From: a virus
Strand: one strand, 5' to 3'
UHGV virus genome: UHGV-1373008
Length of the DNA stretch: 45,385 nucleotides
A model generated the notes under the pieces. It saw only the letters and a program-made list of their open reading frames with translations, did not search any database and was not told where the DNA came from. Position 1 is the first letter of the stretch; each line of letters starts with the position of its first letter. A program made the position numbers and the translations under genes. Below are positions 3,855-31,587 of the stretch, piece after piece.

Positions 3855-4391
3855 TCAAAATGGTACATCATCGTCGAAGTCAACAGGCGGATCTTCATCC
3901 TGCGGCTTTACCGTTTGCTTTTGTTGCTTTGCTGCTGGAGCGGATTTAGTCTGCTGGCGGCCAAATACCCCGGCAACGTAGTTGCCTGACTTCTGCTTAT
4001 CGTCAGACTGCCATACGCGAAGCAGGAGGATCATCGGGCGGTTAGCCAGAGCGCTTGCGATAGCAAAATCAGTAGGCTCTTTCCCTGACGCCATCAATTT
4101 ACCTCCAGCGTTTGCGTCAATTGCTGCAAGCATGCTGATGGCGTTATCGCGCTGCTTGTCCTTCTGGCTGAAAACCTTCAGCTTCTGGAAGATGATACGA
4201 TTTTTGTAATCACCGTCCAGGATGCGCCATTTAAGGTTAAAGAAGCGCTCACCTTCCCATTCATCGTCCTTGCACTCCTCCACTGCTGCCAGTACGCGGG
4301 TGCCGTCAGGAATAACTTCAAAACCACCACCAGCCTCAAATTCAGACTTTGACTCAACTTCTTTACCGTCAGAAAGATTCCAGAAACCCAT
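3855..4391 (-). CDS. DUF669-like phage replication-module protein with SSB-like acidic C-terminal tail (..DFDDDVPF)
   Basis: The C-terminus mimics the bacterial SSB tail (DDDIPF). Sits in the conserved Gp157/Sak4/DUF669/helicase order. RBS GAGAGGACA. Confidence 0.6.
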   Translation of the reverse strand: MGFWNLSDGKEVESKSEFEAGGGFEVIPDGTRVLAAVEECKDDEWEGERFFNLKWRILDGDYKNRIIFQKLKVFSQKDKQRDNAISMLAAIDANAGGKLMASGKEPTDFAIASALANRPMILLLRVWQSDDKQKSGNYVAGVFGRQQTKSAPAAKQQKQTVKPQDEDPPVDFDDDVPF

Positions 4392-4407: not shown

Positions 4408-4887
4408 TTATTTGATGATCAGCTTTGGTTTTCCATCGGTGATGGCACAACCTTTAATTTCAGTTCCGGCTTTCAGTGCTGCTTTAATCGCTGCATTATC
4501 TGCCGATACTTTTACAACACGATACTGCTCTGGCAACTGCTCAACCGGGACAAACACATCCAAAACAGGAGATGGTTTGCCAAGCGTTATGCTGAACAGC
4601 TTGCCTTTGATATTCGTTTTTCCAGATGCAAGCATGTTCTGACGAAGATAATCTTTCAGGTTATCTATCTTCGCAGTCAGCACCCGCTTGCGTTCTGACA
4701 TGCGTTCAATCTCAGCCTTCATGCCAGCTTCATCCGCCTCAAGCTCGCTGATATAAGCTGCCACCATTTCGGCCTTTCCTTCAAACTCCTCCTCAATCAG
4801 GTTAATGGTATCTTCAATCTGCTCGCGCGGAATATCTTCCATCGCAAGCAGTTCGTTAAGCTGTTTCGTTATTTCGTAAAGACGCAT
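4408..4887 (-). CDS. Sipho_Gp157-like protein (coiled-coil N-terminus)
   Basis: About 160 aa. Composition and position next to the Sak4 ATPase are as in Streptococcus phage gp157 family modules. Confidence 0.5.
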   Translation of the reverse strand: MRLYEITKQLNELLAMEDIPREQIEDTINLIEEEFEGKAEMVAAYISELEADEAGMKAEIERMSERKRVLTAKIDNLKDYLRQNMLASGKTNIKGKLFSITLGKPSPVLDVFVPVEQLPEQYRVVKVSADNAAIKAALKAGTEIKGCAITDGKPKLIIK

Positions 4888-5698
4888 AATACTTAATCTC
4901 TGTCATAAGTGGATTTTCGCCTTTATCAAACTGAATCTCAGGTTCAAGGTTGAAGCGATTTTTCGCATTGACGTAACCAACCCGGCCATCACCAGAGGTG
5001 ACAAGTACACGCTGCCCTGTCTGCACAACTTTACCGAACTTAGTTACCTGCCCTTTTTTATCTGTCTCAGTACCCTTCACAAACTCCTCATTGCGGATAT
5101 AGATAACAGCATCGCTAAGCGCAACGTAACCATCAATACTGGCTTCGTGCATATTGAGGGTGTAAACGGTGTACTCGTCAGAATCCGGTCTGTTCTTCAT
5201 CTTACGTATGCCAGCATGCGCAAGATAAATGATGCTCATACCTTTGTTGGAGCGCAGATACTTGCAGGCGTTAATAATTTCAGCATGCATCTCCGCCACA
5301 ACCAGATAGCCCTTGTTGTAACCACCGGCCGCTGCACCAACGTTATCTACTCCATAGTTTTCGCAAACCTCATGCTCAAACATGGCGTGGAGGCTGGTGA
5401 TGGAATCGATAACCAGCGTTTTATAGTCATGCTCTTCTGTAATAAGAGCGCGCAACTGTGACAATAAGTCTTCTTTTGTGCTCGTCTTGCGCTTTGCATC
5501 AGCTCGCTTCAGAACAGGGAATGAATCAGGCTTGTTTTCTTCGTCCCAGTCGTCGAATACGCCGGTAATCTCTTCCGCCTGAATGAAAACAGGCTTAGGG
5601 AATAGCGCTGCAAGAGTCGTCTTGCCAACGCCAGGCGTGCCGACAAGAGTAATGATAGGTGCAACTGGTTTTGGTTTTTGAATCATTGATAAGCTCAT
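4856..5698 (-). CDS. Sak4-like AAA_24 ATPase (RecA-fold recombination/replication ATPase)
   Basis: Walker A GTPGVGKTT. The track ORF begins at a GTG (5716); the ATG at 5698 is preceded by the strong RBS GAGAGGACA, so I place the start at 5698. Confidence 0.75.
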   Translation of the reverse strand: MSLSMIQKPKPVAPIITLVGTPGVGKTTLAALFPKPVFIQAEEITGVFDDWDEENKPDSFPVLKRADAKRKTSTKEDLLSQLRALITEEHDYKTLVIDSITSLHAMFEHEVCENYGVDNVGAAAGGYNKGYLVVAEMHAEIINACKYLRSNKGMSIIYLAHAGIRKMKNRPDSDEYTVYTLNMHEASIDGYVALSDAVIYIRNEEFVKGTETDKKGQVTKFGKVVQTGQRVLVTSGDGRVGYVNAKNRFNLEPEIQFDKGENPLMTEIKYYASLRNNETA

Positions 5699-5741
5699 AG
5701 TGTCCTCTCGAATCACTCAGCGTTGTTGCTGGTGTGAGTAA

Positions 5742-28112: not shown

Positions 28113-29201
28113 ATGGAAAAGATTATCTTTACGAAAGGCCTGATCACCAACTCGCAGGTGGTCAGAGAGCAGTGGCGCCACCTGACTGTTGACCGCAAGG
28201 TTTTCATCAATGGTGAAAACGCTCTGGCGAAAGAATACGGCGTGAACGCCACCGCACTGGTAACGAAAGACTACTGGCGCGAAGTGGACGATGTGACCAC
28301 CCGTGTCTTCCGCAATGAGTCCGGCATGGACATGATGGCCGACCTGATGACGCTGGCGACCAACATCAACATCGGCAAGACCGTGGCAGTTAGCCGTATG
28401 GCTTCCGACGCTGGTAAGGTTGTGCGCACCATCTCCGGGCAGGAGCCTGAAGACCTGGATAAAACCCGCTACTCCTACAGCGGCGATGTAATCCCGATCT
28501 TCAAAACCGGTTATGGCCGTGAGTGGCGTGAGCTGCTGGGTATGCAATCTGAAGGTTTCGACCCGCTGATTGATGACCAGGAAAACACCACCTTCAACCT
28601 GCGCGCAGACATGGCGGATTATCTGCTGGTCGGCGATGCAAGCCTGAACGTGAACGGCGTTTATACTGCTTACGGCATCACCAACCACCCGAACACCGTG
28701 CAGCTTAACCTGAGTGCCTCCGGTACTGGCGAGCTGAACATCGACCTGCAAACTGCAACCCCTGATGAAATCGTTAAGTTCTTCAACCAGGATTTCCAGG
28801 CGGTTCTGGATACGCAGAACGTGTTCGAGCCGGTTACTCTGTGGGTTTCTCCGGCCGTGCGCCGATCCTTCAGCCGCCCGTACTCCAACGCGGCAGGCTT
28901 CAAAGGCGGCACCATTGAGGATTATATCCTCGCATTCGGCAAAACCGGCAACGTTGGCCGCATCGCGTCTATCGGCACCAACTTCAAGCTGACCGGGAAC
29001 CATTTCGTCGGCTATGTGAAGAATGCGCTGTATATCCGCCCTCGCGTCGCTCAGCCGGTATCCACCTATGCAGAGCCGCGTACCACGCCGCACGCTAACT
29101 TTAACTTTTTAACGTGGGCTGCTATGGGTTTGCAAATTCGCCGGGATTTCTCGGGCCGAAGCAAGGTGTTCAACGGCTACGGCACGCAAACCGCGCTGTA
29201 A
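28113..29201 (+). CDS. Major capsid protein (lambda gpE-like family)
   Basis: 362 aa. Position. Strong terminator follows. Confidence 0.65.
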   Translation: MEKIIFTKGLITNSQVVREQWRHLTVDRKVFINGENALAKEYGVNATALVTKDYWREVDDVTTRVFRNESGMDMMADLMTLATNINIGKTVAVSRMASDAGKVVRTISGQEPEDLDKTRYSYSGDVIPIFKTGYGREWRELLGMQSEGFDPLIDDQENTTFNLRADMADYLLVGDASLNVNGVYTAYGITNHPNTVQLNLSASGTGELNIDLQTATPDEIVKFFNQDFQAVLDTQNVFEPVTLWVSPAVRRSFSRPYSNAAGFKGGTIEDYILAFGKTGNVGRIASIGTNFKLTGNHFVGYVKNALYIRPRVAQPVSTYAEPRTTPHANFNFLTWAAMGLQIRRDFSGRSKVFNGYGTQTAL

Positions 29202-29438: not shown

Positions 29439-29470
29439 AAAAGCCCCGCGAGGGGCTTTGGTTTATTTTA
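29439..29470. terminator. Bidirectional terminator (AAGCCCC-GCGAG-GGGGCTT + TGGTTTATTTT)
   Basis: Stem-loop between convergent transcription units. Confidence 0.7.
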
Positions 29471-29603
29471 GCGTGAACCAAACCTTATCTTCTTTTTCAT
29501 GCAAGTGGTCGCGCTCTTTTGGTTCTGGAAAATCCTTTGGGTCTAACCCCATCTCGCAAGCAGTATCAAAAGAAACATCATCTTCGTCAATGCTGTCACT
29601 CAT
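29463..29603 (-). CDS. Small acidic protein (46 aa), last gene of the minus-strand ParB/DnaN-like operon
   Basis: Open frame starting 3 nt after the DnaN-like stop and ending in the terminator. Confidence 0.3.
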   Translation of the reverse strand: MSDSIDEDDVSFDTACEMGLDPKDFPEPKERDHLHEKEDKVWFTLK

Positions 29604-29605
29604 CA

Positions 29606-30142
29606 CTAAATCCTCATTGGCATAACGATAACTTTTGCAGTCTCTCCAGTAGGCGCACTGATGTTTGCGACGGCGGTGCTGGTGTTGCCATTCAACTCAA
29701 ATAGCACCGCTTCAAATTTCGGGTTAAACAACTTCGCCAGCTTCTCAACATCGGCAAGATATTTGGCATTGAAGCCAATCTGTTCTGCTGGCGCGGCCTG
29801 CTTAGGAATGATGCGATCAATATCAGGGTAATTGCCGTCAACCTCAGAGCAAATACCTGCGCCAACCAGCACATCAAAATTGTTATGATAAGTGACAATC
29901 TTTGCCATGGTATCAATCACCGCATATGAATAATTTTTTGTCGGCGACTTGCTTATCGACACGATGACGTTACTTTTTATTTTGTTTTCATGCTTACTGG
30001 CAATCATGGCGCGATGACCGTCAGTAGCGGCAACTCGACCATCAGGCATAAAGCAAATGCCATTCAGGTAGTAACGCACATCCTGTTTGTCTTGAAATAT
30101 CAAAGCACCTTCAAGGAGTAACTTGCTAACTTTTAATTTCAT
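29606..30142 (-). CDS. Truncated DNA polymerase III beta (DnaN) sliding-clamp homologue (178 aa, roughly domain II plus a shortened domain III)
   Basis: QDVRYYLNGICFMPDG..VAATDGHRAMIAS versus E. coli DnaN QDVRYYLNGMLFETEG..RTVATDGHRLAVCS. C-terminus AKVIVMPMRI versus AAYVVMPMRL. Confidence 0.7.
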   Translation of the reverse strand: MKLKVSKLLLEGALIFQDKQDVRYYLNGICFMPDGRVAATDGHRAMIASKHENKIKSNVIVSISKSPTKNYSYAVIDTMAKIVTYHNNFDVLVGAGICSEVDGNYPDIDRIIPKQAAPAEQIGFNAKYLADVEKLAKLFNPKFEAVLFELNGNTSTAVANISAPTGETAKVIVMPMRI

Positions 30143-30315
30143 CACTTCACCTTTATCATGTGTTGTTTTGCAACCTTCAGGCATTCATCGAAAATCTTGC
30201 CATTCTTTTCACTCTGGTTGCTCCTGTAGTGGGTAATTGCGGCCTCTATAGCCGCGTTGTCGATGCCTGGCAGTTTTTCGCGCAGGTTTTTCTCTATGAA
30301 TTGCTCGTGGTTCAT
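30142..30315 (-). CDS. Small hypothetical protein (57 aa), coupled between the ParB-like and DnaN-like genes
   Basis: TGATG overlaps at both ends. Confidence 0.35.
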   Translation of the reverse strand: MNHEQFIEKNLREKLPGIDNAAIEAAITHYRSNQSEKNGKIFDECLKVAKQHMIKVK

Positions 30316-31130
30316 CACAGCTTCTCCAGAATCGCCAGCACTTCATTCAACTCAGCAGAAGGAAGGCGCAAAAATTCTTCTGTCTCCTGTGCCACATGCC
30401 CCTCGGCTACCACCATGTGATCTGCTTCTTTCAGCAACTGAATCAGGCGGTCAATCGGCTTAACTTTTTTGGCCTTGAGGGTTTTCGCCGTCACCTTATC
30501 TTTTCCCTGCGCTTTCGCTTCCTCAACGGCTGCATCAATAACGTTAACAGCATCATCGCCATGCTCACGTGCTACCGCAACGGCGTTGGCATAGCTGATT
30601 TGGCCTGCATTGATGCGTTGCTTGATGGCATCAGGTACATCACCAAGTGACAGGTGCATCTGCACATCAGAAACTGAGCGACCAACCTTCTTGGCGATTT
30701 CTTCATTCGTCCATCCGAACCCTTTCAGGCGCACATAAGCCTTTGCACGCTCAAGCGGGTCAAGCTGCTTTCCTTGACTGGATGACACCATGAAGGCGAT
30801 TTTATCCGCTTCATCGCCGGTGAAGTCTTTGCACTCAATGCGCGCAATTGGTATTCCGCGCTCAATGGCACGCAGTGCGCCAAGGTAACGATGCTGGCCG
30901 TCAAGAATCTTGATACGCTTTCCGTCGGCATCAGGAATAACAGTTAACGCAGGGATTGGCTGGCCTGATTCCCAGCACTGCGCGAAGTATTCAACGTGCT
31001 GCTCATCGGCTTCGCGGATGTTGTACCCCGGCTCAAGATAAAGCTGATCGACAGGAACCTGATAACCTTTGTTGACCACGATTCCGCCGCGAGTTTCTTT
31101 GTCTGAGTAAATTTTTCCGAGAGATGTCAT
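30315..31130 (-). CDS. ParB/Srx-like nuclease-domain protein
   Basis: ParB N-terminal motif KILDGQHRYLGA. Start at an internal ATG with RBS GAGGAAAAG. Confidence 0.7.
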   Translation of the reverse strand: MTSLGKIYSDKETRGGIVVNKGYQVPVDQLYLEPGYNIREADEQHVEYFAQCWESGQPIPALTVIPDADGKRIKILDGQHRYLGALRAIERGIPIARIECKDFTGDEADKIAFMVSSSQGKQLDPLERAKAYVRLKGFGWTNEEIAKKVGRSVSDVQMHLSLGDVPDAIKQRINAGQISYANAVAVAREHGDDAVNVIDAAVEEAKAQGKDKVTAKTLKAKKVKPIDRLIQLLKEADHMVVAEGHVAQETEEFLRLPSAELNEVLAILEKL

Positions 31131-31137
31131 CTTTTCC

Positions 31138-31254
31138 TCACTTTGATAAACAGATTGCGCTGGCAATGGCGAATCCGATAACGATTAATGCCAGCTTGAT
31201 TTTGAAATTGCGCCATGCTTTCAGGTCTTCTTTGCGGATTTCGTGGCGGATCAT
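31138..31254 (-). CDS. Small membrane peptide (38 aa; charged N-terminus, hydrophobic C-terminus)
   Basis: ATGA-coupled to the upstream gene. Sequence MIRHEIRKEDLKAWRNFKIKLALIVIGFAIASAICLSK. Confidence 0.3.
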   Translation of the reverse strand: MIRHEIRKEDLKAWRNFKIKLALIVIGFAIASAICLSK

Positions 31255-31520
31255 TTTGATTCTCCGAGTGCTTTGGCGATTGCTGCTTTAGCTTTCGAGG
31301 TGTTAACGTAGACACATGCGCGAGCCTCCAAATCCAGCAGCGCTTCCAGCAATTCAGGCGCTGCGGCAATGAGCTGTGCATCATGGATGTTCTGAATATC
31401 TTCTATCGTGTCGTATGGGCCCTCTGCTGGGATATCAACATCTATTGATGTAAGTCTATTGCGAAGTCTCCACGGCCCCGGCGTACCTTTGAATTCATTC
31501 ATCTTCATCACCTCTAACAT
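31251..31520 (-). CDS. Hypothetical protein (89 aa), first gene of the minus-strand operon
   Basis: ORF track. Promoter TTGACG-N17-TATAGT immediately upstream. Confidence 0.5.
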   Translation of the reverse strand: MLEVMKMNEFKGTPGPWRLRNRLTSIDVDIPAEGPYDTIEDIQNIHDAQLIAAAPELLEALLDLEARACVYVNTSKAKAAIAKALGESK

Positions 31521-31530
31521 TTATTGTTGT

Positions 31531-31587
31531 TTCTACGTCATCACTATAGCTACACCCTCAATCTACGTCAACACTTTATGATAAAAT
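31531..31587. promoter_or_regulatory. Divergent control region: minus-strand promoter TTGACGTAGATTGAG-N8-TATAGT (reverse complement of 31543-31571) and plus-strand extended -10 TGATAAAAT (31579-31587); two motif copies
   Basis: Same 15-mer as the promoter at 9925. Confidence 0.6.

Follow-up and report, generated by a model that had tools for sequence, protein, structure and literature searches.

The window analysed here is the whole stretch of 45,385 nt of virus genome UHGV-1373008, a sipho-phage genome of ~45 kb that is close to the Klebsiella phages XY3, DP01 and RSU-F4K5 and to the ‘Vibrio’ phage pYD38-A. A small antisense operon lies inside its head-gene block, between the major capsid gene and the head–tail genes, with the order 89-aa gene, ParB-like gene, 58-aa gene, mini-clamp gene and 47-aa open reading frame (ORF) (Table 1). 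The mini-clamp gene encodes a protein of 178 aa that is homologous to part of DnaN, the beta sliding clamp, which is the central docking hub of bacterial replication and repair and a drug target. A first-pass annotation of the window had read the protein as a truncated DnaN homologue of about 1.5 domains lying in one operon with the ParB-like gene. Both statements hold within the window, and phmmer, hmmsearch, hhalign, the AlphaFold2 (AF2) model and Foldseek agree on the homology; the motifs, too, are as they had been described.

The mini-clamp ORF is on the minus strand with its stop end at 29606. Its longest form, 192 aa, would begin at ATG 30184, and the 178-aa form begins at ATG 30142. A Shine-Dalgarno-like AAGGTGA is located 5–11 nt 5′ of ATG 30142, the start shares one base with the stop codon that ends the preceding 58-aa gene (TGATG), and the same 178-aa start is used in annotated relatives. 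The protein contains QDVRYYLNGICFMPDGRVAATDGHR and has the C-terminus VIVMPMRI.

Similarity of the 178-aa protein to DnaN is far beyond chance. Searches of the Protein Data Bank (PDB) with phmmer recover enterobacterial beta clamps at E 8.4e-13 to 5.6e-12. A family profile of 84 diverse homologues, gathered by sequence search and with a mean column identity of 23%, matches E. coli DnaN with an hhalign probability of 99.4% (E 1.6e-21) and in hmmsearch at E 1.2e-29. The AF2 model made on the same 84-sequence alignment has a predicted local distance difference test score (pLDDT) of 96.7 and a predicted template modelling score (pTM) of 0.90; the DNA clamp fold is present, and the best 50 Foldseek matches of the model in the PDB are all beta clamps. 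The alignment produced by hhalign covers beta 137 to ~250, which is domain II with the interdomain connector, and then ~313–366. HMMER gives an alternative register against beta 245–303, a reflection of the internal repeat of clamp domains. From the IGFN..Y and VMPMR motifs it is clear that what has been kept is the C-terminal half of domain III, a beta-alpha-beta-beta-beta unit.

The DnaN equivalog is defined by three clamp-fold domains, about 366 aa and a score above the curated cut-off (TIGR00663; PF00712+PF02767+PF02768). The 178-aa protein lies outside it by domain count, interface and score cut-offs alike. TIGR00663 is matched at E 2e-11 with 43.4 bits, below the cut-off of 137.65 bits, and PF02767 (21.1 bits) and PF02768 (16.3 bits) are both under the cut-off of 27, as would be expected of a fragment. 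No match to PF00712, the domain I family, was found in the 178-aa protein.

Absent from the mini-clamp are domain I, beta ~251–312 and helix alpha2 of domain II. The ‘shortened domain III’ of the first-pass annotation is confirmed and can be refined to a single C-terminal half-domain, to which the helix loss in domain II has to be added. In the DSSP assignment of the AF2 model no helix is present between strands 59–63 and 73–77, and the model has just two long helices, 7–16 and 126–139. Thus one of three expected pore helices is deleted, and the same pore helix is deleted in most of the mini-clamp family. A clamp review assigns I78, F106 and R103 to one face of the dimer interface and I272, L273, E298 and E304 to the opposite face. 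The former fall in the missing domain I and the latter in the missing half of domain III, so that every listed dimer-interface residue is gone, on both sides. As had been anticipated, the fragment lacks what it would need to form a normal ring alone.

Judged by sequence, the cleft that receives clamp-binding motifs (CBMs) is retained. For 17 of the 18 residues that the clamp review assigns to the cleft, the mini-clamp has a counterpart, most of these being identical and 85–100% conserved in the family; the 18th, V344, was excluded for uncertain mapping. Cleft residues make up 10 of the 15 most conserved columns among the 84 homologues (hypergeometric p 7e-9). The most conserved columns include P106 (beta P242, 100%, 84/84), G42 (beta G174, 99%), R23 (beta R152, 96%), P175 (beta P363, 95%), M174 (beta M362, 94%), H43 (beta H175, 93%), Y128 (beta Y323, 90%), L26 (beta L155, 89%), T40 (beta T172, 89%) and R177 (beta R365, 85%). 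Arginine or lysine at position 110 (86%) and N125 (75%) are also frequent in the family. Mean conservation is 0.76 at cleft positions versus 0.38 at other positions, and in a randomization none of 100,000 sets of 17 positions reached 0.76. The segment corresponding to loop II is likewise maintained, with D21 at 92%, Y25 at 92% and K19 at 74% (76% as K+R). In beta, loop II contacts DNA, and D150 and R152 are essential there.

The mini-clamp is also basic. Its isoelectric point (pI) is 8.8 and the family median is 8.5. E. coli beta has a pI of 5.25, and its corresponding segments, taken by themselves, have one of 6.1. Lysine or arginine is frequent in the family at the positions of K134 (77%), K137 (67%) and K142 (70%), all of them exposed; K19, exposed as well, is the equivalent of H148 in loop II. 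With the three repeats inside beta aligned by hand, K134 would come to lie at the position of the pore residues R80/R205. Raised pI in viral clamp homologues that lack a loader has been taken to indicate direct, UL42/UL44-like DNA binding (Kazlauskas & Venclovas 2011; PMC3201878).

The short form is widespread. A word-indexed search returned 422 close homologues, and the 120 matches listed are all 178–193 aa; several sources name close homologues ‘DNA polymerase-3 subunit beta’. An exhaustive search of cluster representatives gave 1856 matches at E <=1e-3 and 132 at E <=1e-10. Among the best 150 of the 1856, nearly all are 170–220 aa and align end to end, and the sole full-length DnaN (369 aa) ranks second from last. 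Grouped at 50% identity, the homologues with this architecture make up more than 130 clusters. With tblastn the gene was found in 254 sequenced phages, at 28–92% identity to annotated phage proteins. Salmonella (102), Escherichia (64), Klebsiella (26) and Vibrio (14) head the list of hosts, which also includes Burkholderia, Shewanella, Proteus, Erwinia and others. The BFVD contains many phage proteins of 180–250 aa with the same fold (TM 0.8–0.9). The ratio of non-synonymous to synonymous substitution rates (dN/dS) is 0.16 against two relatives, indicating purifying selection. Constant length, selection and spread together show that the short form is an architecture of long standing, maintained by selection, rather than one truncated recently. 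Separately, the homologue in Edwardsiella phage PEi21 is apparently split into two small ORFs, with only 80% of the query matched; the copy may have decayed, or a frameshift may have entered during sequencing.

The novelty of the gene was overstated in the first-pass annotation. GenBank entries routinely carry the label ‘DNA polymerase III beta subunit’, and short phage homologues of it were already reported in 2011 (PMC3201878). That paper is the sole relevant mention found in literature searches, which turned up no functional study of the short phage homologues. What seems to be new is the finer anatomy, namely the half domain III, the lost pore helix and the conservation centred on the cleft. 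The protein belongs to PHROG 3007 (E 9.2e-56, residues 1–178 on profile positions 1–186 of 190), which is labelled ‘RusA-like Holliday junction resolvase’, a label that has been propagated in RefSeq. A RusA identity was rejected; no match to RusA (PF05866) is seen at E up to 1, and true RusA genes are separate neighbours in the lambdoid contigs. Its probable origin is the position of the gene beside true RusA genes in the nin regions of lambdoid phages.

Table 1. Coordinates of the mini-clamp gene, its segments, the surrounding operon and other features mentioned in the text
Feature	Sequence	Position	Strand	Basis
Mini-clamp CDS (coding sequence), 178 aa; DnaN domain II + C-terminal half of domain III	Window	29606-30142	-	Homology, AF2, Foldseek, PHROG 3007, dN/dS
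aa 19-28, KQDVRYYLNG; beta loop II (H148-Y154) + L155; cleft R152/L155	Window	30059-30088	-	Family conservation
aa 39-44, ATDGHR; beta T172/G174/H175/R176; predicted cleft subsite I, H175 bridging both subsites	Window	30011-30028	-	
aa 64-72, short loop in place of domain II helix alpha2 (beta 196-207, pore residues R197/K198)	Window	29927-29953	-	DSSP of AF2 model
aa 101-113, VDGNYPDIDRIIP; interdomain connector, beta 237-249; cleft P242/R246/V247	Window	29804-29842	-	
aa 122-142, IGFNAKYL + helix; beta 317-332; cleft N320/Y323	Window	29717-29779	-	
aa 172-178, IVMPMRI; beta C-terminal strand V360-L366; predicted cleft subsites I and II	Window	29609-29629	-	
58-aa gene (phrog_4439), adjoining the mini-clamp gene on its 5′ side and translationally coupled to it	Window	30142-30318	-	
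ParB-like protein (HTH_ParB/KorB, DGQHR box)	Window	30315-31166	-	Profile matches
89-aa gene, first in operon (phrog_1273), no assigned function	Window	31251-31520	-	
47-aa acidic ORF overlapping the mini-clamp stop codon; putative CDS	Window	29463-29606	-	
Sigma-70-like promoter candidate upstream of operon, TTGACG-17-TATAGT	Window	31543-31571	-	
Bidirectional intrinsic-terminator-like hairpin at operon end	Window	29440-29459	.	
Major capsid gene	Window	28113-29201	+	
DUF669 SSB-like protein	Window	3855-4391	-	
AAA_24 (Sak4/RecA-like) protein	Window	4856-5716	-	
Methyltransferase gene near mini-clamp	L001	17745-18674		
Methyltransferase gene near mini-clamp	L020	4078-5193		
Methyltransferase gene near mini-clamp	L013	4631-5296		
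Methyltransferase gene near mini-clamp	L008	8659-10164		
Methyltransferase gene near mini-clamp	L024	1759-2460		
Methyltransferase gene near mini-clamp	L021	3272-4024		
Methyltransferase gene near mini-clamp	L025	2163-2501		
Homologue carrying the RusA-like label in RefSeq	L010	3998-4510		
Homologue carrying the RusA-like label in RefSeq	L012	3977-4558		
Homologue of Edwardsiella phage PEi21, apparently split	L026	2501-3028		

No DNA polymerase gene is present among the ORFs scanned in the window. The window ORFs longer than 474 aa encode a PrimPol/PriCT_2 primase, an SNF2-type helicase, a tape measure protein and a tail protein, the last two assigned through synteny with RSU-F4K5, and the replication module is of the Gp157, AAA_24, DUF669, helicase and primase type. 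Among scanned window ORFs of at least 130 aa no clamp-loader gene was seen. Lambdoid carriers of the mini-clamp likewise show no polymerase in the stretches read, and Dhillonvirus EP23 has its own family-A polymerase. Thus the mini-clamp is not tied to any particular polymerase. The DUF669 SSB-like protein of the window ends in ...PPVDFDDDVPF and its RSU-F4K5 homologue in DYDDDIPF; the C-terminal hub tail of E. coli SSB is MDFDDDIPF. With a near-copy of the SSB tail and a mini-clamp in one genome, mimicry of host replication hubs (SSB, beta) appears to be a theme there.

Elsewhere the gene occupies varied surroundings. In Dhillonvirus EP23, Kagunavirus fFiEco02 and the myovirus Bcep781 it forms an antisense island in the head module, the Bcep781 gene product, gp15, bearing the annotation ‘DNA Pol III b subunit fragment’; in Shewanella phage 1/41 it lies among structural genes. 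An antisense insert in the head-morphogenesis block therefore recurs in four distant lineages, the window clade, Dhillonvirus, Kagunavirus and Bcep781 (contigs L010, L011 and L012). In Erwinia phage Gungnir39 the gene is found between primase, C5 methylase and helicase genes, in IME279 it follows a Dam-type methylase and adjoins primase and helicase, and in Vibrio phage PVP-XSN it adjoins Dam and SSB. One context has it upstream of replication protein O, lambdoid phages have it between RusA and NinX in the nin region, and in one prophage it adjoins a C5 methylase and Lar. Its location outside the replication module, to which the first-pass annotation had attached weight, is thus true of the window and not of the family. 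The pairing with a ParB-like gene, noted in the first-pass annotation, is confined to the window clade (~46-kb sipho-phages) and its Skatevirus and Deseoctovirus relatives. DNA methylases of unrelated classes (C5/Dam-like) are located within two genes of the mini-clamp in about 9 of some 20 contexts, a small sample of neighbourhoods without statistical control, and Lar or ‘anti-restriction’ genes are nearby in several. A methylase as obligate partner was ruled out, there being no methylase homologue in the window.

With the cleft and loop II kept, the ring parts lost and positive charge gained, the pattern is best fitted by a non-ring module that would bind CBMs, probably while on DNA, and so tether or withdraw host clients; we put the chance of this being right at about even. 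The protein would be a monomer in the shape of an open arc, made up of three half-domains (two from domain II and the C-terminal one from domain III) and without canonical ring closure. Such an arc would keep the hydrophobic CBM cleft and the DNA-contacting loop II. Its effect on the host would be to capture the CBMs of DNA-metabolism proteins away from the host clamp; candidate clients are the alpha, epsilon and delta subunits of Pol III, Hda, Pol II/IV/V and MutS/MutL. If capture took place while the protein was bound directly to DNA, it would serve as a loader-independent tether or adaptor, comparable to UL42, rather than as a purely soluble sponge. Action on DNA is proposed on the grounds of the basic family and the lysines at pore-facing positions. 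Independence from any one phage polymerase and the SSB-like tail in the same genome are counted in favour of the reading as a whole. Titration of clamp-binding proteins, one of several roles raised in the first-pass annotation, is therefore the one favoured by the data, the CBM cleft being the most conserved feature of the family, although peptide binding itself is what we infer from that conservation.

Several observations weigh against a CBM-capturing role. A collection made by sequence favours homologues that have kept the DnaN motifs, and conservation of the cleft is thus partly a matter of ascertainment; cleft geometry, too, has been read from the alignment alone. The charge difference is moderate (net +3). 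A convincing CBM was not found in the phage proteins or in the neighbouring methylases, the latter yielding no CBM-like motif at all. In the window ORFs the only candidates, which were rejected, were an internal QMHLSL within the helix-turn-helix (HTH) region of the ParB-like protein and matches in unlikely ORFs. A scan of the replication proteins and the EP23 polymerase picked up just one weak candidate, MSLSMI at the N-terminus of the AAA_24 protein. A sponge for CBMs in general would strike Pol III as well, which this polymerase-less phage needs. As to expression, the count of sigma-70-like sites in the region is not above chance, which makes the promoter candidate upstream of the operon weak evidence.

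Two side observations concern possible ligands of the cleft. The AAA_24 protein probably starts at an internal ATG, giving the weakly CBM-like N-terminus MSLSMIQ; this N-terminus is kept in RSU-F4K5, a relative too close to be informative. The longer homologues P0236, P0238 and P0192 also have only half of domain III, their extra length being a C-terminal tail past MPMR. This tail carries an aromatic motif, EW[YF]YGP or SWAYNSP, which may reach back to occupy the cleft as a ligand in cis.

A more specific form of the proposal is possible, though less likely than not. In phages of many lineages the mini-clamp could be a loader-independent, monomeric, DNA-binding ‘open clamp’, a remnant of beta reduced to the client cleft, through which it would pull one chosen host client onto phage DNA or strip such clients from the host ring, candidates including the Pol III core or a CBM-bearing repair, regulatory or defence protein. 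If true, it would be the bacterial-virus counterpart of UL42, and it and the SSB-tail mimic would both belong to a general strategy in which phages copy host replication hubs.

The fold may instead have been reused as an accessory of methyltransferase, ParB-like or anti-restriction genes, in anti-defence or DNA modification, with a cleft that holds a non-CBM ligand or is structural. The frequency of nearby methylases and of Lar or ‘anti-restriction’ genes, together with the island-like antisense placement in head modules of distant lineages, would accord with this. However, no neighbour is conserved family-wide, the window manages without a methylase, and none of the five operon proteins matches a PADLOC defence profile. 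The conserved residues, moreover, belong to a surface cleft of known function and would be expected to drift if it were unused. Reuse of this kind is accordingly regarded as rather unlikely. For the defence decoy that the first-pass annotation had also raised, the PADLOC result is likewise negative, but neighbouring anti-restriction and methylase genes do recur. A true sliding clamp or processivity factor, in which several copies form a closed ring loaded on phage DNA to hold a polymerase, is unlikely as well. All known interface residues are absent, a third of the expected pore helices (one of three) is deleted here and in the majority of homologues, the AF2 prediction is a confident monomer that is self-contained, and the basic pI points away from rings that depend on a loader, for which no gene was seen among the window ORFs scanned. 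In favour of a ring, three half-domains taken four times make the 12 of a normal ring, and the halves of a domain would be related by a pseudo-twofold axis; the orphan half-domains might dimerize and then build a tetramer. Conservation of loop II and of the basic helix residues, the occurrence of some homologues in replication modules, and the precedent of E. coli beta*, a two-domain form said to trimerize, would also suit a ring.

Co-assembly with the host clamp, or its poisoning, had been raised in the first-pass annotation and is disfavoured. A poison subunit would associate with monomers of host beta, prevent the ring from closing or being loaded, and so stop host replication. Descent from a self-associating protein lends the idea some appeal, and phage inhibitors of beta do exist (Twort gp168 with beta, PDB 7evp). 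Yet both beta–beta interface surfaces, in domain I and in the N-terminal half of domain III, are absent, the helix beside the free edge of domain II is deleted as well, and the carriers found without a polymerase (the window, the lambdoid contigs) presumably need working host clamps; such a role is very unlikely. Decay of a captured dnaN into a functionless fragment, which truncation relative to DnaN and the apparently split PEi21 homologue might suggest, is effectively excluded by the conservation data. A dN/dS of 0.16, one architecture in hundreds of diverged phages and across the clusters counted above, a confident AF2 fold and a coupled start with a ribosome-binding site are not what a decaying fragment would show.

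Comparison with known systems places the mini-clamp among the short phage homologues of the polymerase III beta subunit (PMC3201878; PHROG 3007; Bcep781 gp15), of which it is a member. The 2011 description has these short forms covering ‘the second and third domains’ and reports no function or cleft analysis (PMC3201878); the mini-clamp differs from it in having only half of domain III and in the loss of one pore helix. Twort gp168 (PDB 7evp) and MuC of phage Mu, which enlists the host clamp through a CBM (PMC12867686), show that the clamp–client network is a target of phages; both are ligands of the clamp, whereas the mini-clamp is a copy of the receptor side. E. coli DnaN, in contrast, has 366 aa and three domains and is acidic, and the mini-clamp has 178 aa and 1.5 domains, is basic and lacks the dimer-interface residues. 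In its proposed action it would most resemble the client-binding face of beta, and possibly UL42. The herpesvirus processivity factors UL42 and UL44 have two full domains each and a dedicated viral polymerase partner; open factors of this type bind DNA directly by a basic face and hold a peptide of the polymerase in the groove. The mini-clamp has no detectable sequence relationship to them and no identified partner, and its DNA binding is a proposal. E. coli beta*, as reported by Skaliter et al. and by Paz-Elizur et al. (1996), is an internal-start product of dnaN that consists of domains II and III and trimerizes into a six-domain ring. Like the mini-clamp it is a naturally shortened beta without domain I that keeps the client cleft. 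However, it has two complete domains, and the mini-clamp lacks the half-domain required for the trimer interface.

The gene is real, ordinary to find and functionally unexplored; for two decades its family has carried the label ‘Pol III beta subunit’ or, in error, ‘RusA-like’. If the proposed CBM binding is correct, a widespread phage docking groove without a ring would be a natural tool for rewiring the clamp hub. It could then show how polymerase-less phages commandeer host replication or blunt host repair and defence, and it might provide a minimal soluble scaffold for the study or screening of clamp-binding ligands.

The other genes of the operon differ in how far they follow the mini-clamp. 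The 58-aa gene is found in 149 phage records. In the members of the window clade that were checked (STGO-35-1, Sa179lw, DS8, ZCKp20p) it directly adjoins the mini-clamp gene on the 5′ side; it is a clade-specific companion of that gene and may be a partner, and it is unannotated in some RefSeq records, e.g. Seszw_1. The 47-aa ORF was considered as a conserved partner and rejected, as it is present in one other phage record only and is thus a lineage-specific add-on. Likewise, the 89-aa gene was compared with the ‘anti-restriction’ gp19 of Seszw_1, to which it has no similarity. The ParB-like protein matches HTH_ParB and KorB and, weakly, a DGQHR (DndB-like) domain. Its ORF is listed from TTG 31166; the proteins of relatives are annotated at 271 aa (e.g. 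RSU-F4K5), and the true start is probably ATG 31130, which gives that length.

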